A stretch of DNA of 62,606 nucleotides, counting the filler. It is 9 parts of 9 records of this genome, joined end to end, with 100 filler letters (N's around TTAATTAATTAA, not from the genome) between each part and the next. Parts side by side here need not be neighbours in the genome. Positions count along the whole stretch, not along the records: positions 53,206 to 62,606 come from SRR31147125_89300; 8 more parts are not named here. One strand, written 5' to 3'. Below, piece by piece: positions 6,311 to 62,606 of the stretch (its first letter is position 1; each line of letters begins with the position of its first letter). The position numbers were made by a program, and so were the translations under genes. Below the pieces are notes generated by a model. The model was not told where the DNA came from, ran no database searches, and was given only the letters and a program-made list of their open reading frames with translations.

Positions 6311-6410
6311 NNNNNNNNNNNNNNNNNNNNNNNNNNNNNNNNNNNNNNNNNNNNTTAATTAATTAANNNNNNNNNNNNNNNNNNNNNNNNNNNNNNNNNN
6401 NNNNNNNNNN
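6311..6410. other. Artificial contig spacer (N44-TTAATTAATTAA-N44)
   Basis: N runs with six-frame stop linker; composition changes across it. Confidence 0.99.
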
Positions 6411-12761: not shown

Positions 12762-12861
12762 NNNNNNNNNNNNNNNNNNNNNNNNNNNNNNNNNNNNNNN
12801 NNNNNTTAATTAATTAANNNNNNNNNNNNNNNNNNNNNNNNNNNNNNNNNNNNNNNNNNNN
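12762..12861. other. Artificial contig spacer
   Basis: N run plus TTAATTAATTAA. Confidence 0.99.
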
Positions 12862-18106: not shown

Positions 18107-18206
18107 NNNNNNNNNNNNNNNNNNNNNNNNNNNNNNNNNNNNNNNNNNNNTTAATTAATTAANNNNNNNNNNNNNNNNNNNNNNNNNNNNNNNNNNNNNN
18201 NNNNNN
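18107..18206. other. Artificial contig spacer
   Basis: N run plus TTAATTAATTAA. Confidence 0.99.
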
Positions 18207-24253: not shown

Positions 24254-24353
24254 NNNNNNNNNNNNNNNNNNNNNNNNNNNNNNNNNNNNNNNNNNNNTTA
24301 ATTAATTAANNNNNNNNNNNNNNNNNNNNNNNNNNNNNNNNNNNNNNNNNNNN
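24254..24353. other. Artificial contig spacer
   Basis: N run plus TTAATTAATTAA. Confidence 0.99.
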
Positions 24354-31439: not shown

Positions 31440-31539
31440 NNNNNNNNNNNNNNNNNNNNNNNNNNNNNNNNNNNNNNNNNNNNTTAATTAATTAANNNNN
31501 NNNNNNNNNNNNNNNNNNNNNNNNNNNNNNNNNNNNNNN
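31440..31539. other. Artificial contig spacer
   Basis: N run plus TTAATTAATTAA. Confidence 0.99.
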
Positions 31540-38463: not shown

Positions 38464-38563
38464 NNNNNNNNNNNNNNNNNNNNNNNNNNNNNNNNNNNNN
38501 NNNNNNNTTAATTAATTAANNNNNNNNNNNNNNNNNNNNNNNNNNNNNNNNNNNNNNNNNNNN
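38464..38563. other. Artificial contig spacer
   Basis: N run plus TTAATTAATTAA. Confidence 0.99.
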
Positions 38564-46948: not shown

Positions 46949-47048
46949 NNNNNNNNNNNNNNNNNNNNNNNNNNNNNNNNNNNNNNNNNNNNTTAATTAA
47001 TTAANNNNNNNNNNNNNNNNNNNNNNNNNNNNNNNNNNNNNNNNNNNN
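46949..47048. other. Artificial contig spacer
   Basis: N run plus TTAATTAATTAA. Confidence 0.99.
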
Positions 47049-52388: not shown

Positions 52389-53105
52389 TTACCTGGGCGT
52401 CCGGGCCCTGGAAAGGCGGTGTAAAATCCTGTCAGCCAAATTTTCACAGGCCCTGCCCTCCTCTTTTGTCAATCCGTTTCTACTGAACCTGCGCTGGTTT
52501 TCCAGGAATATGAGATCCTTTATGGGACCCTCGATCCCAAATGGGGCGATCCCCTCACGGATCCTCCGGAACCAGGCCTGCCAGGTCTCATGGTCGAACC
52601 GGCCGTATCCCAGGGTCTCCAACCCCGCCTCCACCCTTTCCACCCCCTGGGTTTTCAATTCATCCCGTCCCTTTTTGGCTCCCTTTCCCCGGATTCCGGC
52701 CCGTCCGGTCTTGACAGGCAACCCGATCCGCCGGGCCCGGATCCATATCAGGACCGCCACCAGGGAAAAAAGAAGCCCCAGGCTGTATCGGTCTAAAATC
52801 AGAGGGACTGCCTGGTAACGGAACCTGGACAGGCAAAAGCCCAGGGAGGACAAAAGGTCCCGGACCAGGGTATGGCCTAATGCCTTGCGGTCCGCCTGGA
52901 TAAACCCCGGCGGCGTGGTGTCCACCCGGATCCATCTGCCGTCGATCCAGGCCTTGACCCAGGCATGGGCGTCCTGCTGCCGAACCAGGGTCATGCCCCA
53001 TAAGGGGGAAACCTCATGGGCCACAAAGCCCGTGGCATACCGGGCCGGTATCCCGGCCGCCCTCAGGATCAGGGCCGTGGCCGTAGCAAATAGTTCGCAA
53101 TGCCC
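52389..53105 (-). CDS. Transglutaminase-like (TgpA-type) membrane protein, C-terminal part
   Basis: GHCELFATA..LRAAGIPARYATGF, DAHAWV, WIRVDTTP. Confidence 0.85.
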   Translation of the reverse strand, partial: GHCELFATATALILRAAGIPARYATGFVAHEVSPLWGMTLVRQQDAHAWVKAWIDGRWIRVDTTPPGFIQADRKALGHTLVRDLLSSLGFCLSRFRYQAVPLILDRYSLGLLFSLVAVLIWIRARRIGLPVKTGRAGIRGKGAKKGRDELKTQGVERVEAGLETLGYGRFDHETWQAWFRRIREGIAPFGIEGPIKDLIFLENQRRFSRNGLTKEEGRACENLADRILHRLSRARTPR

Positions 53106-53205
53106 NNNNNNNNNNNNNNNNNNNNNNNNNNNNNNNNNNNNNNNNNNNNTTAATTAATTAANNNNNNNNNNNNNNNNNNNNNNNNNNNNNNNNNNNNNNN
53201 NNNNN
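53106..53205. other. Artificial contig spacer
   Basis: N run plus TTAATTAATTAA. Confidence 0.99.
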
Positions 53206-53852
53206 GCCTCGCCGAGCGTCCCAAGCGGGATTTCCCCGAGCATCTTTTCCTTTACCGACTCATCGAGCTGGTCGGTCATTTCCGTCATGATATAACCCGG
53301 GGCGACACAGTTCACGGTGATGGAGCGTGACGCGAATTCCCTGGCCAGAGATTTGGTGAGTCCAACCATGCCGGCCTTGGCCGCACTGTAGTTGACCTGA
53401 CCGCCATTTCCAGAGAACCCGACAATGGAGCTGATGTTGACGATACGTCCCCAGCGCTTTTTCATCATCGGTTTGATTGCTGCCTTTGCACACGCAAACG
53501 CGCCCTTCAGGTTGGTATCGAGCACGCTGTCCCAGTCACTCTCCTTCATTCGGGCAACCAGGCCGTCGCGGGTGATCCCGGCGTTGTTGACCAGGATATC
53601 GATCGATCCGGCCTCGGCAATGATTGACTTGAACGCACCCTGGGTCTGCTCGAAATCGGCAACATCGAACTGGACGACGCCCGCCTTCCCGCCGTTGTCC
53701 CTGATCGCCGCAGCGGTCTCCTCTGCAGCATCGGCCCGGTTGACGTAATTTACGTATACCATACAGCCCATCTCGGCCAGCCGCAGGCTGACCGTTCTTC
53801 CGATCCCCCTGCTCCCGCCGGTGACAACCGCGATCTTTCCTTCCAGTGTCAT
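53206..53852 (-). CDS. fabG: 3-oxoacyl-ACP reductase (3' truncated)
   Basis: TGGSRGIG, NNAGITRD, GQVNYSAAKAG; start overlaps the etfA stop (ATGA). Confidence 0.95.
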
Positions 53853-55045
53853 AGCCCTCGTTTCTCCTCGATTTTGTCGATCAGTTTGGGAAGGACCTCG
53901 TAGAGATCACCCACCACACCGAAATCGGCGATAGTGAAGATCGGCGCATCCGGGTCGCGATTAATCGCCACAATGGTTTCAGACGACTGCATGCCGGCCA
54001 CGTGCTGAATCGCCCCGGATATCCCGCACGCGACATAGAGTTTCGGCGCGACGGTCTTGCCGGTCTGGCCGACCTGGTGTGGATACGGAATCCAGCCTGC
54101 ATCCACGACGGCCCGCGACGCGGAAACCTTGGCGCCAAGCGTCTCGGCAAGTTGTACGATCAGCTCGAATCCCTTTTCATTCTCGAGCCCCCGGCCACCG
54201 GAAACGAGAATATCTGACTCCTGGATGTTGACCTTCGCCTGCTGCTCGCTTACCGATTCGAGTACCTGGATCCTGCTTGTCAGCTGACGGGGAGTCGGAG
54301 TGACATCGATAATTTCGCCCGTCCGTTTCTCGTCGTACGGCAGCTCTTTCATCACCTTCGGGCGGACCGTGGCCATCTGCGGCCGGGTGTCCGGACAGAT
54401 GATGGTGGCCATGATATTGCCGCCGAATGCCGGCCTGGTCTGCAGCAGGATGCCGTCCTCGGCGCGAATCTCGAGCCTCGTGCAGTCGGCCGTCAATCCG
54501 GCATCGACCGTGGTTGCAACCCCTGGGATAAACGAACGGCCGATTGCCGTTGCACCGGCGAGCACGACCTCGGGCTTGTGCATCGTCACCAGATCTGACA
54601 CAATTTTTTCGTAGATTTCATCGGAGAAGAGCTCCAGCCCCGGATTGTCCACCCGGTACACCGTATCCGCACCATGTCCGATCAACGTCTCTGCACTGGT
54701 GCCGGTCATGTGTCCCAGCAGAAGTGCGGTGAGCGATACGTTTCTGTCGTCGGCGAGTTTTCTGCCGATGCCGAGCAACTCCGTGGCCACCGGTGCCAGT
54801 TCCCCGCCGGTAAATTCACAGAACACCCAGATACCTGACCAATCGTCGATATCCTGCTGGATCCGGCGGGCGTCGCCGTCGTCGATACGCAGCGCCTCCA
54901 CCTCACACACCTCGACACAGGCACCGCACAAGGTACACGTATCGCCGACTACTGCCAGGCCGTCAACAACCTCTATCGCACCGAACGGGCACGAATCTTC
55001 ACAGATTCCGCACCCGATGCAGAGTTTTTCATCTATCTGCAGCAT
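53849..55045 (-). CDS. etfA: Electron transfer flavoprotein alpha subunit with N-terminal 2x[4Fe-4S] ferredoxin domain
   Basis: CIGCGICEDSCP, CTLCGACVEVC; GLTADCT, TRPAFGG, QVGQTGKTV, GISGAIQH. Confidence 0.93.
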   Translation of the reverse strand: MLQIDEKLCIGCGICEDSCPFGAIEVVDGLAVVGDTCTLCGACVEVCEVEALRIDDGDARRIQQDIDDWSGIWVFCEFTGGELAPVATELLGIGRKLADDRNVSLTALLLGHMTGTSAETLIGHGADTVYRVDNPGLELFSDEIYEKIVSDLVTMHKPEVVLAGATAIGRSFIPGVATTVDAGLTADCTRLEIRAEDGILLQTRPAFGGNIMATIICPDTRPQMATVRPKVMKELPYDEKRTGEIIDVTPTPRQLTSRIQVLESVSEQQAKVNIQESDILVSGGRGLENEKGFELIVQLAETLGAKVSASRAVVDAGWIPYPHQVGQTGKTVAPKLYVACGISGAIQHVAGMQSSETIVAINRDPDAPIFTIADFGVVGDLYEVLPKLIDKIEEKRGL

Positions 55046-55072
55046 ACTATCTCCACCACGCAGCCCGGCCGG

Positions 55073-55855
55073 TTACACCAGGTACGGTTTGAGTTTATCA
55101 ACCAGTTGCTCAACCTGCTCGTCCACCGTTCCGGAGAGCATCGCCCGTTCGCCGCGCGGTTCAGGCGGAAAAACCTTGACCACCTGAGTCGGAGAGCCGG
55201 GAAGACCGATGCACGAGGGATCTGCGCCGATATCCTCTGCGGAGAGCATCCGAATCTCAGCCTTCTTGGCTTTCATCTTTCCTTTCAGCGACGGAACCCG
55301 CGGCTGATTGATATCTTTCACCACGCTGAAGAGCAGCGGATACCCGGACTGCAGCACGTCGAAACCGTCGTCCATCATGCGCTCGAGCACGATCGTCGAT
55401 TCATCGCTGGAGCGAATTTTCTGGATACAGGTCGCATACGGAATGTCGAGTCGCATCGCCAGTCCCGGTCCGACCTGCGCGGTATCACCGTCGATTGCCT
55501 GCTTTCCGCAGACGATCATATCCGCGCCACCCAATGTCTCAACGGCTTTTGCCAGCGTGTAGGACGTTGCCCAGGTGTCGGCTCCGGCAAAACTGCGGTC
55601 GGAAATCAAGACCCCGTGGTCGGCACCGCAGCTGATCGCCTGACGCAGCACCTCCTCGGCCTGGGGCGGTCCCATGGAAATCGCCGTCACTTCACCTCCA
55701 ACCGACTCCTTGATCGACACCGCCGCCTCGAGGGCGTGCTGGTCATACGGGTTCATGATCGATTCAACGCCTTCACGAGCGAGCGTGTTGGTCTCGGGGT
55801 CGAGTTTCACGTCGCTGGCGTCAGGCACCTGCTTTATGCATACGACTATCTTCAT
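55073..55855 (-). CDS. etfB: Electron transfer flavoprotein beta subunit
   Basis: CIKQVPD, NPYD, DRSFAGADTWATS, GKQAIDGDTAQVGP. Confidence 0.95.
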   Translation of the reverse strand: MKIVVCIKQVPDASDVKLDPETNTLAREGVESIMNPYDQHALEAAVSIKESVGGEVTAISMGPPQAEEVLRQAISCGADHGVLISDRSFAGADTWATSYTLAKAVETLGGADMIVCGKQAIDGDTAQVGPGLAMRLDIPYATCIQKIRSSDESTIVLERMMDDGFDVLQSGYPLLFSVVKDINQPRVPSLKGKMKAKKAEIRMLSAEDIGADPSCIGLPGSPTQVVKVFPPEPRGERAMLSGTVDEQVEQLVDKLKPYLV

Positions 55856-55941
55856 ATCTCAGCTCTCGGGGAATCTTGGCACCACGCGACAAACGCAGCA
55901 GTGCGGTGGGAGGTCGGCCTGAACGCGGAGTTCCTGGTAAA

Positions 55942-57093
55942 CTACCGGTTGTATTCCTTGTTGAGCTCCTGGCCGATGACGTTGCGCTGGACCTGGTTGG
56001 TCCCCTCGTAGATCTGGAGGATCTTCGCATCGCGCATCATCTTCTCTGCCGGATACTCACACATGTATCCGTACCCGCCCATTACCTGAACCGCATCGGT
56101 CGTGACCTTCATGGCCACATCCGTGGCGAACACTTTGCACATCGAGGATGCTTTCGACATGTCCCTGGGATTGGCGTCAATATGTTTTGCGGCAGTGTAG
56201 GTCAGTGCACGAGCGGCCTCGGTCTGGGTCGCCATGTCGGCGAGCATATGCTGGACCGCCTGGAAGCCGATGATCGGCTTACCGAACTGCTCACGCTGTT
56301 TCGCATACGTTACCGCCATGTCGAGCGCGCCCTGGGCAAGACCGACGGCAAGCGCGGCGATCCCCGGACGGCTCGAGTCGAGCGTTTTCATCACGTGGAT
56401 AAATCCGGTTCCCTGGCGGCCCATGAGACGATCCTTCGGGATTCGACAGTCTTTGAAGATGAGTTCGGTCGTCGATGACGCACAGATGCCCATTTTCTTC
56501 TCTTTCGGTCCGCACGAAAAACCCGCATCGCCCTCTTCGACGATAAAGATGGAGGCGCCTCGCGCTCCCCTGCTTTTGTCGGTCATCGCAACCACAAGAT
56601 ATATCTGCGCCTCGCCGCCGTTGGTAATCCACTGCTTGGTACCATTCAATACCCACTCGTCGCCGTCGAGTACCGCGGTGGTCTGGATCCCGGACGCATC
56701 GGAGCCGGCGTTGGCCTCGGTCAGCCCGAAGGCCGCAAATTTCTCACCACTGGCAACCGCCGGCAGGTATTTCTGCTTCTGATCATCAGAGCCGCCGACA
56801 ATGAGTGGCAAGACCCCGAGACCGCTGGCGGCAAAAGCCGTACCAACGGCAATACAGCCCCGGCCGAATTCCTCCAATGCGAGAATCGAATCGAAACAGC
56901 TGCCGCCGAACCCGCCGTACTCCTCGGGAATAGTCAGCCCCATCAGGTCGGCCTGGGCAATCGCATTGAGAATTTCACGCGGGAACCGGTGGTTTTCATC
57001 GAGTTCAGCGCGGCTGGGAATTATCAGTTCGTCAGTGATCTGCCGTGCTATATCGACGATCATCTGTTGTTCTTCAGTCAGGAAACGTTCCAT
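55942..57093 (-). CDS. Acyl-CoA dehydrogenase (butyryl-CoA dehydrogenase-like)
   Basis: RBS gaggag; FGLTEANAGSDA, GTKQWITNG, GGYGY, RDAKILQIYEGTNQ. Confidence 0.93.
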   Translation of the reverse strand: MERFLTEEQQMIVDIARQITDELIIPSRAELDENHRFPREILNAIAQADLMGLTIPEEYGGFGGSCFDSILALEEFGRGCIAVGTAFAASGLGVLPLIVGGSDDQKQKYLPAVASGEKFAAFGLTEANAGSDASGIQTTAVLDGDEWVLNGTKQWITNGGEAQIYLVVAMTDKSRGARGASIFIVEEGDAGFSCGPKEKKMGICASSTTELIFKDCRIPKDRLMGRQGTGFIHVMKTLDSSRPGIAALAVGLAQGALDMAVTYAKQREQFGKPIIGFQAVQHMLADMATQTEAARALTYTAAKHIDANPRDMSKASSMCKVFATDVAMKVTTDAVQVMGGYGYMCEYPAEKMMRDAKILQIYEGTNQVQRNVIGQELNKEYNR

Positions 57094-57108
57094 CTCAGTT
57101 CTCCTCAT

Positions 57109-58083
57109 CTACCACGTAAGCAGGGTCGCACCCCAGGTTAATCCTCCGCCGAACGAGCAGAATAACACCGTATCGCCGGCCTTGAGTCTCCCCGATCGAT
57201 TGGTCTCGTCGAGTGCTATCGGGATGGAGGCGGCAGACGTATTGCCGTAATTCATCACGTTGAGCACCACTTTTTCCCTGTCAACACCGATCCTCTCGAC
57301 CAATTTATTCAGGATTCTGATATTTGCCTGATGCGGGATCATCACATCCACATCGTCAATTGTCTTGCCGGTCCGGCTGAACAGACGATCGATGGCATCC
57401 TCCATGGCCTTCACGGCATGCTTGAACACCTCCCGCCCCTCCATCACAATATGAACGCCGGGATTGTCCGCAACCTGCAGATCGGGATTGAGGCTGGGGG
57501 ATTGATGCATATAGAGCAGATCCCACAGTCCGCCGTCCGAGCGATGATTGGTACCAATGATGCCCCTCTGCTCATCTTCACTGTGCGTGAGAACCGCGGC
57601 CCCTGCCCCGTCTCCGAACAGGATGCAGGTGTTGCGGTCCTGCCAGTTGACTCTGGATGAGAGCGTCTCGGCACCGATGGCCAGCACCTTCGCGTCGCGG
57701 TCGGTGCGGATATGTCTGTCACCGATATCGAGCCCGTAGAGGAAGCCGCAGCAGGCGGCGTTGATATCGTATGCGAACGCGTTGGTTGCTCCGATTTCGT
57801 TCTGCACGTAGCAGGCGGTCGACGGCATCAGCATGTGGGAACTGATCGTTCCGACCACCAGCAGGTCAATTTCCAGAGGGTCGACCTCAGCCATTTCCAG
57901 CGCCCTTCGTGCAGCAGTCGCGGACAGCTGGTAGGTTTTTTCCTCCCCGCCGATGCGGCGGTTCTCTATACCGGTTCGAGAGCGGATCCATTCGTCGTTG
58001 GTGTCGACGATGGACTCAATCTCGACATTTGACATGGTCCTGGCAGGAAGCGCTGAACCGGTTCCACGGACAATTGTTCCCAT
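57109..58083 (-). CDS. fabH: Beta-ketoacyl-ACP synthase III
   Basis: DINAACCGF, LFGDGAGA, PHQAN, YGNTSAASIP, GGGLTWG. Confidence 0.95.
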   Translation of the reverse strand: MGTIVRGTGSALPARTMSNVEIESIVDTNDEWIRSRTGIENRRIGGEEKTYQLSATAARRALEMAEVDPLEIDLLVVGTISSHMLMPSTACYVQNEIGATNAFAYDINAACCGFLYGLDIGDRHIRTDRDAKVLAIGAETLSSRVNWQDRNTCILFGDGAGAAVLTHSEDEQRGIIGTNHRSDGGLWDLLYMHQSPSLNPDLQVADNPGVHIVMEGREVFKHAVKAMEDAIDRLFSRTGKTIDDVDVMIPHQANIRILNKLVERIGVDREKVVLNVMNYGNTSAASIPIALDETNRSGRLKAGDTVLFCSFGGGLTWGATLLTW

Positions 58084-59105
58084 TAGAACCCTTTTTCGCG
58101 GTCCGCAAGACCCGCAGCGAGGTCCTGTACGATCACATCGTTGAGTTTCAGGCGCTCCATCTCGAGTGCTCCGACAATCGCGTTCTTGATCGCGAATGAG
58201 CTCGATTTCCCGTGACAGACGATACCGATTCCGTCAATGCCGAGCAGCGGTGCACCACCGTATTCGGCGTAGTCGACTTTTTGGGCGAATTTCTTGAAGG
58301 CGGGACGTGCAAGCAGATAGCCGATCTTGGCAAGCGTCGATTTGAGGATTTCCTCGCGCAGCATCTTCATTGCTGCCTCAACGAGTCCCTCACTGATCTT
58401 CAGACAGATGTTGCCGACAAACCCGTCACAGACGACCACGTCGACATCGCCCTTGAAGACATCCCTGCCCTCGACATTGCCGATAAAATTAAGACGGCTC
58501 CGTTCGAGCAGGTTGTATGCCTCCTTGATCAGGCTGTTCCCCTTCCCGGTCTCTTCCCCTATCGTGAGCAGTCCCACGCGGGGGTTCTTGACGTTATAGA
58601 GACCGGATACGCCCGAAGCCATAACCGCGAACTGGTACAGGTGGACCGGGCGGCATTCGACATTAGCACCGATATCCATCATAACCACGGGGCCCTTGAG
58701 GGTGGGAAAAACGGTGGCGAGACCGGGCCTGGCAACATTCTTCAGGCGGCCCAGTTTGCGTACCCCCGCAGCAAGGGTCGCACCCGAGTTGCCGGCACTG
58801 ACCGCGCCGGCCACCTCTCCGTGCTTCACCAGGTCAAAGGCGACCATGATCGACGAGTCCCGTTTCTTACGGATCGCGTTCACCGGGTTCTCATCCATCC
58901 CGACGACGGTGGGCGCGTGCTTTACCTCCAGTCTGTCGAGCAGCGGCTTCTGCTTCGCTGAAATACCGTCAAGATGTTCGCGCAACACCGCTTCGTCACC
59001 GACCAGTGTGATACTCACATCCTCCTGCTCAACAGCAAGCAGAGCACCATCGATCAGCACCTGTGGGCCAAGGTCTCCGCCCATGGCATCCAAGGCTATT
59101 TTCAC
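58083..59105 (-). CDS. plsX: Phosphate acyltransferase PlsX
   Basis: IALDAMGGD, SAGNSGA, DIGAN, GNVEG, DGFVGN, HGKSS. Confidence 0.96.
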   Translation of the reverse strand: MKIALDAMGGDLGPQVLIDGALLAVEQEDVSITLVGDEAVLREHLDGISAKQKPLLDRLEVKHAPTVVGMDENPVNAIRKKRDSSIMVAFDLVKHGEVAGAVSAGNSGATLAAGVRKLGRLKNVARPGLATVFPTLKGPVVMMDIGANVECRPVHLYQFAVMASGVSGLYNVKNPRVGLLTIGEETGKGNSLIKEAYNLLERSRLNFIGNVEGRDVFKGDVDVVVCDGFVGNICLKISEGLVEAAMKMLREEILKSTLAKIGYLLARPAFKKFAQKVDYAEYGGAPLLGIDGIGIVCHGKSSSFAIKNAIVGALEMERLKLNDVIVQDLAAGLADREKGF

Positions 59106-59114
59106 GATGTACCT

Positions 59115-59300
59115 CTAAACTTCAGAGTCGAGAACGTATACGGTGGCCTTCTTGTATTTTCCGCAGTTGCCGCATAGTTTATGCGGTTCTTTCGGTTCGC
59201 CGCAATCCTGGCAGACGGAAAGGGCAGGAGCGCTCAATGCGTCATGGGAACGTCTCTTGCGTGTACGGGAACGTGAATGTCTTCTTTTAGGTAATGCCAT
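59115..59300 (-). CDS. rpmF: 50S ribosomal protein L32
   Basis: MALPKRRHSRSRTRKRR, CxxC...CxxCG. Confidence 0.96.
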   Translation of the reverse strand: MALPKRRHSRSRTRKRRSHDALSAPALSVCQDCGEPKEPHKLCGNCGKYKKATVYVLDSEV

Positions 59301-59325
59301 GGTTTCCTCCGTTATAAAAAACCGG

Positions 59326-59853
59326 TCAGCGATCGGACAGGGTGCTCAATATCGAAAACGGCGATGCGCTGCTCTCTTGTTCACAGTCGCACTGCTTGTC
59401 ATTGAGATCGGCACCACAGACCGGACACAGTCCCCTGCACGCGTCGTCACATAACATCCGTGACGGCAACGCCAGGTATACCTGCTCGCGGCACAACGAT
59501 CCGAGATCTATAACCGGTTCCTCCAGATACATTCGATTTATCTCTTCTTCACGGCACTCCGTTTCGTGCCGCACTTCATCAATATCCTCGCTGCCGAGGA
59601 TGCATTCATAATCCAACTCTGCACGCAACTCCAGCCTTACCGGCCTGCAGCATCGGTCACAGGGAAGGCTGACCGTGCATGTCATCACGCCGGTCACCCG
59701 GGCTGCTTCACTGCTCCCGGAATGTTTGGCGCGCACATTGAGCGTCCCTGCCGGATCTTCCAAAAGATCTATCTCCCCGACGGGGAACCAACCGTCATCA
59801 AGGATGCGGACGGAACAATCAGACTGATTCAACTCACTCAACAATAGTTTCAT
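59326..59853 (-). CDS. yceD: DUF177/YceD family protein
   Basis: CDRC, LCDDACRGLCPVCGADLN; canonical position upstream of rpmF. Confidence 0.9.
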   Translation of the reverse strand: MKLLLSELNQSDCSVRILDDGWFPVGEIDLLEDPAGTLNVRAKHSGSSEAARVTGVMTCTVSLPCDRCCRPVRLELRAELDYECILGSEDIDEVRHETECREEEINRMYLEEPVIDLGSLCREQVYLALPSRMLCDDACRGLCPVCGADLNDKQCDCEQESSASPFSILSTLSDR

Positions 59854-59989
59854 GACCTTACCGTGTCGTGGCGACCAGACCCCAAATAACAAGCAGCTAA
59901 ACAAGCAATAATAATAAATTGAACAAAAAAGTGCTAGAAAAAATTCTTGCGGAGACGGGGCGCAGCCGAGAATACAGGTGTGGGGGGCC

Positions 59990-60610
59990 TCAGCCGGTCG
60001 AGCCGGCAGCGGCAAATTCCTTGTTTTTATCTTCAATAATCTTGATCAGCCCCTCGTATTCCTGCTGTCGAAGAATGGTGCGGAACTGTTCCATATAGTT
60101 TCGGACGAGGCTGACACCCTCGATATTGATATCGTACACCATCCACTCCGTATGTTCCCGCTGCATGATGTAGTGGATTGGTATCTTCGACCCCTCGTAC
60201 GGCACCAGAGTCGTGACTTGGGCGCGCTTGCCCTTGATGCGCTCGGCAACGAATTCGACATCACGGCCCCCGTAAGTTTCAAGCTTGCCGATGTAAACAT
60301 TCTCGAGCAACTTGGTGACCTGTGCCACAAAATAATCCTTCTCGTCCGCGGACAAACCGTTCCAGGCCTTCCCGAGTACCCGCCTCGACATCTCCCTGAA
60401 ATCGAAACGACCGGATATCGCGTCCATGATCCGGCTCCGGCGCTCATCCGTTTTCCCGGCCCCCTGGAGCGACTCATCATCGAGAATCGAAAAAAGTGTA
60501 TTAATAGTCGGCTGAAGCTGCGTGGTCGGCCCTTCTTCCTGCCCGTAGAGCGGAGACACCGCCGGAAAAACCAGCAGCGCCGCGATCATAACCGTTCTCA
60601 AAATTTTCAT
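59990..60610 (-). CDS. mlaC: MlaC/Ttg2D phospholipid-binding periplasmic protein
   Basis: FDFREMSRRVLG, WMVYDINIEGVSLVRNY. Confidence 0.88.
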   Translation of the reverse strand: MKILRTVMIAALLVFPAVSPLYGQEEGPTTQLQPTINTLFSILDDESLQGAGKTDERRSRIMDAISGRFDFREMSRRVLGKAWNGLSADEKDYFVAQVTKLLENVYIGKLETYGGRDVEFVAERIKGKRAQVTTLVPYEGSKIPIHYIMQREHTEWMVYDINIEGVSLVRNYMEQFRTILRQQEYEGLIKIIEDKNKEFAAAGSTG

Positions 60611-60802
60611 GATATCGTAGTACCCGTCATTCATGGTTAACGCGGTCAGCGCCTACGGTGAATCTATCCCCGGTTTTGGATAAACCAGCAGGCTACCTAG
60701 AGTTTATGATAAGTTTATGGATAAGCATTCCTGCAGATATGTCCGCACGAAATTTCATCGCCGGTACGCCCCGGTCGCTGGCGCATCCGGCACGATTGCT
60801 TC

Positions 60803-61672
60803 TCAGTCGGTGATGATCGAGCGCCGGTAGTCGTAGTAAGCCTGGCGTGCTGCGATGTAGGGGTCGAGCGAGATCCGTTTCAATTCGTCGTACACGTCGG
60901 GGGTGATGGTCATCAGGTTGACCCTGCTCACACCGAGATAGACCATATCGGTTGCGAAACTCTCGGTGATATACGGAACCGGATGAACATACGCGTCACC
61001 GAAAAAGCCCGCCGTATCCCTGAGGTTGGACGGCCCAAGCAGCGGCAGACAGATATAGAACCCCTCACCGATTCCCCACTTGCCGAGCGTCTGGCCGAAA
61101 TCGGCAAGTCGCGGTTCGATATGGAAATCGCGGTAGGCGGAATCACCTAAACCGAAGACCCCGAGCGTACTGTTTATTAGAAACCGGCCGAGCACCACGC
61201 CTGCGTCCTCGAAATCGCCCTGCAGCACATTGTTGACAAACCGGATCGGAGCGGCCAGATTCGCAAATGCATTGCCGAGACAACGCCGGATGTCCTCAGG
61301 AAGAAGTGCGGAATAGACCTTTGTCGTCGGTTTCAGAACCCAGTAGTAGACCTTATCGTTAAAAACGAACATGGCCCGGTTGAACGGCGCGATAGGATCG
61401 TAGATGTCCGGGGGAATCTCGTTGAAGAAGAAGTCGTCCTCGAAAATCGGATCCCCGAGAACCTCGACCGGTTCATCAAGGTAGGGATCCTCGTCCAGCA
61501 GATTCGGCCCAAGCCCTTCACCGTCGAGATCGAGAAGCAGGTCGGGATACGGATTCTCAGAACTCGGATCGATATCCGCACCAAGGCCTCCACCAGCCTG
61601 TTCGGCCGCAAACGGAGCGGCAGGCCGGACCAGGATGACGGCAAACATCACTATCAGCGCAAGGTATCGCAC
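60803..61672 (-). CDS. mlaA: MlaA/VacJ family protein
   Basis: DPIAPFNRAMF, RFLINSTLG, DFGQTLG.WG, LGPSNLRD, DPY. Confidence 0.9.
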   Translation of the reverse strand: MRYLALIVMFAVILVRPAAPFAAEQAGGGLGADIDPSSENPYPDLLLDLDGEGLGPNLLDEDPYLDEPVEVLGDPIFEDDFFFNEIPPDIYDPIAPFNRAMFVFNDKVYYWVLKPTTKVYSALLPEDIRRCLGNAFANLAAPIRFVNNVLQGDFEDAGVVLGRFLINSTLGVFGLGDSAYRDFHIEPRLADFGQTLGKWGIGEGFYICLPLLGPSNLRDTAGFFGDAYVHPVPYITESFATDMVYLGVSRVNLMTITPDVYDELKRISLDPYIAARQAYYDYRRSIITD

Positions 61673-61868
61673 ATCCGGTTCATACGGTTCTGGTGGTCTG
61701 GTTTTCGTTCTGGTTTACTGTATCATCTGGCACTGCCGAAGGCAAATACGAAGATCGCCGAACAATAAGACATATCATCACAAAGTCAACCGGGACAAGG
61801 CCCGCCGGACAGGTTCACCAGTTGCGTCAATAATCATTTCATATCAAGTATATACACATCAATCCCTG

Positions 61869-62606
61869 CTATTGCATGCGGGGATCAAACGCCTCCCGCA
61901 GAGCCTCACCAATGAAAATCAGCAGGACAAGACTCCCGACCAGCACCGTGAATGTTGAAAGCGACAGCCACCATGCATCGATATTGGCCTTGCCCTGTGC
62001 GAGCAACTCCCCGAGACTCGGCGTCGACGGCGGCACGCCGAGGCCGAGGAAGTCCAGGCTGGTCAGTGCCAGGATCGAGGCTGACATCCGAAACGGCAGA
62101 AAGGTAATGACCGGCGTCATCCCGTTGGGGAGCAGGTGCCGGAACATGATCACCGGATTGGAGACCCCGAGTGCCCGGGCGGCGCGCACATAGTCCAGGT
62201 TCCTGCCGCGCAGGAATTCGGCCCGCACGTAGTCCGAGAGCCCCATCCAGCTGAACAAGGACAGCAGGATGAGGAGAAACAGGGCGCTCGGTTTGAAGAT
62301 CGACGCGAAGATGATGAGAAGGTAGAGCTCCGGCATCGACCCCCATATCTCGATAAATCGCTGGAAGAAGAGATCGGTCCTGCCCCCAAAATAGCCCTGC
62401 ACCGCGCCGCAGATGATGCCGATCAGCGTCCCGGTGGCGGTAAGCGCAAGCCCGAACAGGATCGACAGCCGGAAGCCGTACAGCAGCCGCGCAAACACGT
62501 CTCTGCCTCGATCATCGGTACCGAGGATATTGTCGGCAGTCGGCGGGGACGGAACCGGTGCGACGTCGTAGTTGATCGTGTCATGGTGGAAACGGTTAAG
62601 AGGAAA
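61869..62606 (-). CDS. Peptide (YejE-like) ABC transporter permease, 5' truncated
   Basis: LGTDDRGRDVFARLLYGFR, VRAEFLRGR, EAA-type loop, GEALREAFDPR. Confidence 0.88.
   Translation of the reverse strand, partial: FPLNRFHHDTINYDVAPVPSPPTADNILGTDDRGRDVFARLLYGFRLSILFGLALTATGTLIGIICGAVQGYFGGRTDLFFQRFIEIWGSMPELYLLIIFASIFKPSALFLLILLSLFSWMGLSDYVRAEFLRGRNLDYVRAARALGVSNPVIMFRHLLPNGMTPVITFLPFRMSASILALTSLDFLGLGVPPSTPSLGELLAQGKANIDAWWLSLSTFTVLVGSLVLLIFIGEALREAFDPRMQ

Follow-up and report, generated by a model that had tools for sequence, protein, structure and literature searches.

The window analysed here, a stretch of 62.6 kb made of nine contigs joined end to end, carries in its last contig a gene for an acyl-coenzyme A (CoA) dehydrogenase-like protein, acd, followed by etfB and etfA for the two subunits of an electron transfer flavoprotein (ETF). 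These genes are embedded among those for fatty-acid synthesis by the type II route (FAS II) in the order yceD-rpmF-plsX-fabH-acd-etfB-etfA-fabG, every gene lying on the minus strand, and open reading frames together with Pfam and NCBIfam matches bear out this order as first read from the sequence. We consider it probable, albeit well short of certain, that Acd-EtfAB is a new enoyl reductase of FAS II, of the acyl-CoA dehydrogenase (ACAD)/ETF type, which stands in place of FabI or FabK. The original prediction had left open whether the complex reduces enoyl thioesters of FAS II or makes acyl-CoA primers for FabH. The former is strongly favoured because the module occupies the slot of fabI and fabK, because it nearly excludes FabI and FabK, and because it stays linked to fab genes also where the operon lacks fabH and where Acd follows fabF; a FabL-type protein in the window's own clade counts against a sole-reductase role there.

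The module was initially described as lying exactly where fabD is normally found. This part of the description has to be corrected. In the fabF neighbourhoods of genomes of the same phylum that lack a close Acd ortholog (non-carriers), rpmF-plsX-fabH-fabI-fabD-fabG-acpP-fabF-rpiB is the order at three loci, whose FabI shares 52% identity with that of Escherichia coli, one reads yceD-rpmF-plsX-fabH-fabK-fabD-fabG-acpP-fabF-rpiB, and two have a fabK or fabK-like gene between plsX and fabD. Two loci that do carry Acd (L050 and L075, plsX-fabH-ACD-fabD-fabG) are collinear with these fabI and fabK operons and have Acd in the place of the reductase. Since fabI and fabK fill this position in collinear operons of non-carriers, the module sits in the enoyl-reductase slot, between fabH and fabD, rather than in that of fabD. 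The Desulfobulbales operon has, in addition, lost fabD to another place; in the near-complete relative L003, where the operon continues fabG-acpP-fabF-rpiB-nrdR-ribD, it lies about 240 kb off.

The distribution of Acd points in the same direction. In 151 genomes from the phylum of the Desulfobulbales relative G001, 70 carriers were defined by an Acd ortholog with an identity of 58% or more, which left 81 non-carriers, with a gap in identity from 58% to 55% or less; four single-match genomes fell at 52–54% Acd identity, none of them fab-linked. In Fisher tests without phylogenetic correction, FabI was found in 1/70 carriers and 21/81 non-carriers (p 1e-5) and FabK above the curated cut-off in 0/70 and 4/81 (p 0.12), so that FabI or curated FabK is present in 1/70 carriers against 25/81 non-carriers (p 4e-7). 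FabK-like proteins of at least 255 bits were less unevenly spread (12/70 and 24/81, p 0.086), and FabL above cut-off showed the opposite trend (6/70 and 1/81, p 0.05); any of FabI, FabK, FabK-like or FabL occurred in 19/70 carriers and 44/81 non-carriers (p 9e-4). An independent sample of 101 Nitrospirota genomes was searched for Acd, FabI and curated FabK. Acd (62–69% identity) is encoded by 43, FabI by 44 and curated FabK by 7; Acd overlaps neither of the other two, a single genome has both FabI and FabK, and exactly one of the three is present in 92 genomes and none in eight (Fisher p 1e-20).

The anti-correlation with fabI, fabK, fabL and fabV that had been anticipated is thus seen for FabI and FabK, which are nearly exclusive with Acd; FabL co-occurs with it in Desulfobulbales, and the controls for FabV remained silent. 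Known reductases were also sought in 50 genomes behind the Acd loci. None of the 50 reached E 1e-50 for FabI, the one match being a FabL-like short-chain dehydrogenase/reductase (SDR) of 177 bits, and none gave a FabV match, in a search whose FabV controls were likewise silent. FabK exceeded its cut-off in one genome, of a member of the Clostridia whose Acd is not fab-linked, and FabL did so in 12, all of them Desulfobulbales. Acd is fab-linked in 40 of the genomes searched, and ten of these had no match to FabI, FabK-like, FabL or FabV proteins. Other steps of the pathway could be traced in five tested carriers without a known reductase: FabF was above cut-off in all five, and FabZ was above cut-off in three, just below it in one (152.7 versus 155.15) and not found in the fifth, a Dehalococcoidia chromosome of 1.1 Mb. 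The only SDR match of that chromosome is the FabG adjoining fabD.

A survey of the gene order, proposed at the outset as a check, showed that the linkage to fab genes is widely kept. When genomes representing species were scanned with Acd, at least 595 relatives came up; the 80 best loci were retained and mapped with the window proteins plus fabD, acpP, fabF and rpiB of relatives. If a locus counts as linked when two or more genes of the fab operon lie no more than 6 kb from Acd, 56 of these 80 closest loci are fab-linked, under at least six phylum labels, and in the phylum sample 60/70 carriers have Acd 2.4–5.8 kb from fabF. The gene order of the window is the Desulfobulbales arrangement. Elsewhere the context varies: plsX-fabH-ACD-etfB-etfA-fabD-fabG in Nitrospirota (L035), plsX-ACD-fabD-fabG in L045, L046, L055 and L056, rpmF-fabH-ACD-fabG in L041, L054 and L057, acpP-fabF-ACD in Omnitrophota (L051) and Ratteibacteria (L053), and ACD-etfB-etfA-yceD-rpmF-fabD-fabG in Dehalococcoidia (L071). 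A quickly built maximum-likelihood tree places all 56 fab-linked sequences in one clade of 68 rows (SH-aLRT 96), together with 12 unlinked ones (seven Nitrospirota, three Clostridia, one Lentisphaerota and one Sumerlaeota).

The ETF genes adjoin Acd in 38 of the 56 fab-linked loci and are absent beside it in 17, the remaining locus being truncated. An ETF is encoded elsewhere in 5/5 carrier genomes that lack adjoining etf genes, with a full-length ferredoxin-EtfA in four of them, and a single ferredoxin-EtfA (54–57% identity) is found in each of five Nitrospirota genomes with an unlinked Acd (5/5). Of 36 fab-linked loci whose EtfA could be scored, 35 have the ferredoxin domain. At the locus of Candidatus Electrothrix marina (L018:12005-13226), etfB and etfA are set apart by some 1.2 kb of additional DNA that is missing from the other loci. 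In another genome (G131, L147:1-4513), a distant ACAD, 47% identical to the window Acd, is arranged as etfB-etfA-ACD directly upstream of rpmF-plsX-fabD-fabG-acpP-fabF-rpiB. This order indicates a second ACAD/ETF lineage tied to the fab operon, and the 58% threshold therefore undercounts carriers.

The three proteins of the module are readily classified. Acd (55942-57093, minus strand), the proposed catalytic subunit and a Bcd-like acyl-thioester dehydrogenase, contains the three ACAD domains of Pfam (PF02771, PF02770 and PF00441), each over its whole length (E 8e-33 to 2e-52). Its best relative of solved structure is Clostridium difficile Bcd (5OL2_C, 404 bits, E 7e-120); the score is 389 bits against 4L1F_A and 313 bits, at rank 14, against CarC (6FAH_C). 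The Bcd-type glutamate of the YEG motif noted at first sight is indeed there: the motif reads IYEGT, and E363, which we take to be the catalytic base, is invariant in 34/34 aligned sequences. Acd reaches no NCBIfam equivalog cut-off, the top model being the acryloyl-CoA reductase AcrC (439 bits versus 640), and the scores for AcrB (243 versus 475) and AcrA (361 versus 600) likewise stay below cut-off. Pfam detects no SDR or NMO catalytic domain in any protein of the module, which could be grouped with the known enoyl-ACP reductases by function alone.

EtfB (55073-55855, minus strand), the small ETF subunit, scores 209–250 bits against five chains of solved bifurcating ETFs (6FAH_B, 7QH2_B, 4KPU_B, 5OL2_B and 7KOE_A) and 69–99 bits against canonical chains. 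EtfA (53849-55045, minus strand), the large subunit, with the Pfam domains Fer4, ETF and ETF_alpha, matches CarE (6FAH_A) over residues 3–393 with 426 bits, the ferredoxin domain included, as compared with 275–313 bits for other bifurcating chains and 132–162 bits for canonical EtfA. Its N terminus (about 54866-55045) holds eight cysteines in two CxxCxxCxxxC motifs, so that the 2x[4Fe-4S] domain likened earlier to that of CarE is confirmed by motifs, by Fer4 and by an end-to-end match. The EtfB strings that had been cited as resembling bifurcating ETFs, DRSFAGADT, GKQAIDGDTAQVGP and ERMMDDG, are all present as quoted. Their diagnostic value is less certain: the part of a survey of bifurcating enzymes available to us gives no diagnostic motifs for bifurcating EtfB (PMC6085437), and the arginine near the bifurcating flavin adenine dinucleotide (FAD) is, according to the accessible portion of another study, conserved in ETFs generally (PMC8958531). 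For these reasons the type of the ETF was judged by similarity to solved ETFs, which suggests that it is of the bifurcating kind. By the same measure, the module joins a dehydrogenase resembling Bcd to an ETF resembling CarDE.

In Bcd-EtfAB and CarCDE, NADH reduces the flavin of EtfB and the electron pair is split: one electron passes via the flavins of EtfA and of the dehydrogenase to the enoyl thioester, and the second goes to ferredoxin, in CarE through two clusters. By analogy, NADH would reduce the FAD of EtfB in the present complex. One path would then lead over the FAD of EtfA and that of Acd to trans-2-enoyl-acyl carrier protein (ACP), which would be reduced to acyl-ACP, and the other would reach ferredoxin over the [4Fe-4S] clusters of EtfA. 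With every round of elongation, two NADH would thereby be oxidized, one enoyl-ACP reduced and one reduced ferredoxin returned. Whether Acd takes an ACP-bound enoyl is, in our estimate, an even call, and the odds that Acd-EtfAB bifurcates electrons appear just as balanced; a Bcd-ETF pair working without bifurcation was described in 2025, in the part of that report at hand (PMC12630350). The direction of the reaction is likewise presumed to be reductive. A literature search for residues that separate CoA from ACP use in Acd gave nothing usable, and a predicted complex of two copies of Acd with AcpP of the nearest relative, run without controls, had a score of 0.00, which is no evidence either way.

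Several observations weigh against an enoyl reductase of this kind, some of them from the window's own relatives. A canonical enoyl-ACP reductase in carrier genomes was named in the original prediction as an argument against it, and in part this is what was found: a FabL-model protein with 350–382 bits, above the NCBI cut-off of 328, occurs in 12/13 Desulfobulbales relatives, the thirteenth reaching 255 bits. In addition, an NMO/FabK-like protein with a full-length FabK-model match of 181–187 bits (cut-off 453) is encoded by 4/4 Desulfobulbales relatives (G001–G004), and the 12 carriers with FabK-like proteins mentioned above belong here too. The exclusion statistics ignore kinship, and the genomes are mostly metagenome-assembled genomes (MAGs) whose completeness was not considered. 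Moreover, 37/81 non-carriers have no known reductase at the thresholds used, so that the absence of a known reductase is not specific to carriers. In 20 operons of such reductase-less non-carriers, about half are canonical without an internal reductase gene, and fabI, fabK and fabL occur in none. A hidden reductase gene beside the operon was considered for these 20 and rejected, the recurrent neighbours being cytochromes, a response regulator, LptF/G and RF. On the side of the proteins themselves, Acd is nearest to enzymes solved with CoA substrates and stays far below cut-off with the models for ACADs that act on carrier proteins (MbtN 85/700, RedW 265/650, PigA 239/500). It is also about 62–64% identical to orphan clostridial acd-etfBA products, one of them from a genome with a curated FabK.

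Two of these clostridial loci (L047:6025-9526 and L059:6456-9635) are acd-etfB-(ferredoxin)etfA triads with Acd identities of 62–64%. A butyrate-operon context was rejected for them, since their neighbours are housekeeping genes (metG-like, spoIIR, rluD-like, radC; G6PD, cyclase). The genome of L047 gave no FabI, FabK, FabL or FabV match. In one Desulfobulbales relative (G003, L123:165-2289), a cluster encodes FabG-like, FabZ-like (107 bits) and FabI-like (175 bits, below all cut-offs) proteins, and may represent a separate lipid or polyene pathway. The NMO-family protein of G001 (L086:9968-10954) is encoded between hisS/aspS and pcnB.

The presence of FabL raises the possibility of an auxiliary or conditional isozyme. 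The FabL-type SDR would then be the housekeeping enoyl-ACP reductase in Desulfobulbales, this organism included, and Acd-EtfAB would serve particular redox states, drawing on NADH and ferredoxin instead of NADPH, or particular chain lengths. Bacillus subtilis has FabI and FabL together. Two reductases per genome are indeed common, with FabI and FabK of Enterococcus faecalis as an example in the accessible part of the literature (PMC9671860), and the 12/13 relatives and 6/70 sampled carriers with FabL above cut-off fit such a division of labour. The FabL-model protein has, however, no lipid genes nearby in 3/3 loci (L121:1501-3338 in G001, L120:531-2247 in G004 and L118:442-2244 in G003), and the slot in the operon is held by acd-etfBA. 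In these three genomes, where it scores 354–371 bits, the protein is part of a conserved DUF362-FabL pair, always following DUF362 and near an ACT-domain gene. The six FabL-bearing carriers of the phylum sample all fall in the band of 69–84% Acd identity; at least one carrier, G062 with 72% identity, has no FabL match among all 13 candidates scored. We therefore regard an auxiliary role as a somewhat unlikely explanation, although the most serious of the alternatives. The 12/13 relatives nevertheless make it safer to call the module "an" rather than "the" enoyl reductase of its own organism, and in the window's clade Acd-EtfAB probably acts alongside a FabL-type reductase and not by itself.

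Alternatively, the complex may act at the level of CoA, reducing an enoyl-CoA such as crotonyl- or acryloyl-CoA to provide butyryl- or propionyl-CoA primers for FabH, or feeding another lipid-linked acyl-CoA pool. This would agree with AcrC as the top NCBIfam match of Acd, albeit at 439 bits below its cut-off of 640, with the CoA substrates of the best solved relatives and with the position of acd directly after fabH in the window. Yet the linkage to fab genes is kept where the operon has no fabH (L030, L033, L045, L046, L055, L056 and L067), Acd follows fabF in L051, L053 and L058, and the assigned neighbours include no crotonase, hydroxyacyl-CoA dehydrogenase or thiolase. Primer supply would also leave the exclusion of FabI and FabK and the shared slot unexplained. 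Such a role consequently seems improbable to us.

Slightly less probable again is an oxidative acyl-ACP dehydrogenase for anaerobic synthesis of unsaturated fatty acids, FabX-like and perhaps isomerizing, with electrons leaving via the ETF. FabX is a single FabK-related protein that works in the oxidative direction and, in Helicobacter pylori, coexists with FabI; the ACAD fold, for its part, has a catalytic base suited to 2,3-chemistry. Acd, unlike FabX, excludes FabI and FabK, and one would not expect the gene of a desaturation helper to take over the slot of the reductase. That a flavoenzyme can reverse this step of FAS II is nonetheless illustrated by FabX in the available part of its description (PMC8626469). 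Finally, an ordinary catabolic Bcd-EtfAB of β-oxidation or fermentation that lies beside the fab genes by chance, although the module is a typical ACAD plus ETF by sequence, is very hard to reconcile with a linkage that recurs in 56/80 loci and 60/70 sampled carriers, in several phyla and arrangements, and with start and stop codons that overlap or adjoin those of fab genes.

Acd-EtfAB can be set beside several known systems. With the Bcd-EtfAB complexes of C. difficile (5OL2) and Acidaminococcus fermentans (4KPU/4L1F) it shares the order acd-etfB-etfA and the catalytic glutamate, and its EtfB and EtfA score 220–301 bits against their ETF chains. It differs from them in its fab neighbours, which replace any butyrate-pathway context, in the extra ferredoxin domain of EtfA, in the proposed enoyl-ACP substrate in biosynthesis and in missing the NCBIfam equivalog cut-offs. 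CarCDE of Acetobacterium woodii (6FAH) offers the full-length EtfA match (CarE, 426 bits) and the best EtfB match (CarD, 250 bits), whereas Acd scores higher against Bcd (404 bits) than against CarC (313 bits) and the context is fatty-acid synthesis rather than caffeate respiration. The module resembles FabI and FabK in its place in otherwise collinear yceD-rpmF-...-rpiB operons, after fabH or plsX and before fabD or fabG, and in a distribution complementary to theirs; the fold is unrelated to theirs, namely ACAD plus ETF instead of SDR or NMO/TIM barrel, with three subunits, three predicted flavins, Fe-S clusters and a possible output of ferredoxin. Like FabX, it would pair flavin with Fe-S in acting on the enoyl/acyl-ACP couple of FAS II, but FabX, as far as the consulted portion of its report goes, is a bifunctional dehydrogenase/isomerase for unsaturated fatty acids (PMC8626469), and the fold of the module and its exclusion of FabI and FabK set it apart. 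MbtN, RedW/PigA and AnaB (4IRN) demonstrate that the ACAD fold accepts carrier-protein substrates. They match Acd weakly, and they are oxidative enzymes of secondary metabolism, with Acd far below their family cut-offs.

The DNA around the module can be described briefly. The module lies on the last contig, 53206-62606, and the eight contig joints, each a linker of N44-TTAATTAATTAA-N44, are at 6311-6410, 12762-12861, 18107-18206, 24254-24353, 31440-31539, 38464-38563, 46949-47048 and 53106-53205; features crossing them are artificial and not biology. The Ns start at 53205, and because the contig ends at 53206 the 3′ end of fabG is missing and the DNA below that position is unrelated. All on the minus strand, yceD (DUF177; 59326-59856, Pfam YceD E 4e-25) is the first gene of the conserved yceD-rpmF-fab operon, a position kept in relatives, and is followed by rpmF for ribosomal protein L32 (59115-59300, Ribosomal_L32p E 2.5e-21), plsX for phosphate acyltransferase (58083-59105, FA_synthesis E 1.7e-104) and fabH for β-ketoacyl-ACP synthase III (57109-58083, NCBIfam TIGR00747 371 bits, cut-off 292). 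At the other end lies the 3′-truncated fabG for 3-oxoacyl-ACP reductase (53206-53852, TIGR01830 285 bits over model positions 1–208 of 239). The tight junctions that had suggested a hard-wired module are real: the TAG stop of fabH is followed by 15 nt with a Shine-Dalgarno sequence, AGGAGA, and then by the ATG of acd at 57093, and ATGA is shared by the stop codon of etfA and the start codon of fabG. The gaps between acd and etfB and between etfB and etfA are 86 and 27 nt. Neither promoter-like (4 versus 3.5) nor terminator-like (8 versus 5.8) matches exceed shuffled expectation. By tblastn, no further fab or reductase genes were found across the 62-kb window. Among the fetched loci, the closest relative by Acd identity (93%) and by the tree is a MAG of Desulfofustis sp., Desulfocapsaceae. 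The adjacent contig ends, at 52389-53024 on the minus strand, in the C-terminal portion of a protein that matches the transglutaminase core weakly (E 4e-4, below cut-off) and is unrelated to the module.

No point of diversity in the fatty-acid synthesis of bacteria has been studied better than enoyl-ACP reductase, which is also a drug target. A 2022 review of enoyl reductases covers FabI, FabK, FabL, FabV and metagenomic SDR types, and the terms acyl-CoA dehydrogenase, electron transfer flavoprotein and ferredoxin do not occur in it (PMC9260719). Full-text topic searches, which do not reach supplementary tables, found no description of an ACAD/ETF enoyl-ACP reductase or of such an operon, and the papers found to contain both "enoyl-ACP" and "EtfAB" appear to concern engineered or synthetic pathways. 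What is new here is thus likely to be a complex of the Bcd/CarC-EtfAB type in a new pathway role. It is tempting to go further and regard Acd-EtfAB as a fifth structural class of enoyl-ACP reductase, the first to bifurcate electrons and, for a large part of the anaerobic Thermodesulfobacteriota, Nitrospirota and Dehalococcoidia as well as several candidate phyla, the only enoyl reductase; this wider proposal is tentative, and we hold it to be possible rather than probable.

Should the enoyl-reductase function be borne out, close to half of the genomes sampled from two large phyla of anaerobes (70/151 and 43/101) would use a wholly different fold for an essential step, and the gap left by a missing enzyme in metabolic reconstructions of both phyla would be filled. 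It would also carry bifurcating Bcd-type enzymes well beyond the Firmicutes, Fusobacteria and Bacteroidetes, the only groups credited with bifurcating Bcd in the available part of a 2018 survey (PMC6085437). If the complex does bifurcate, anabolism itself would recover low-potential electrons, which would be relevant to organisms that live near the thermodynamic limit.

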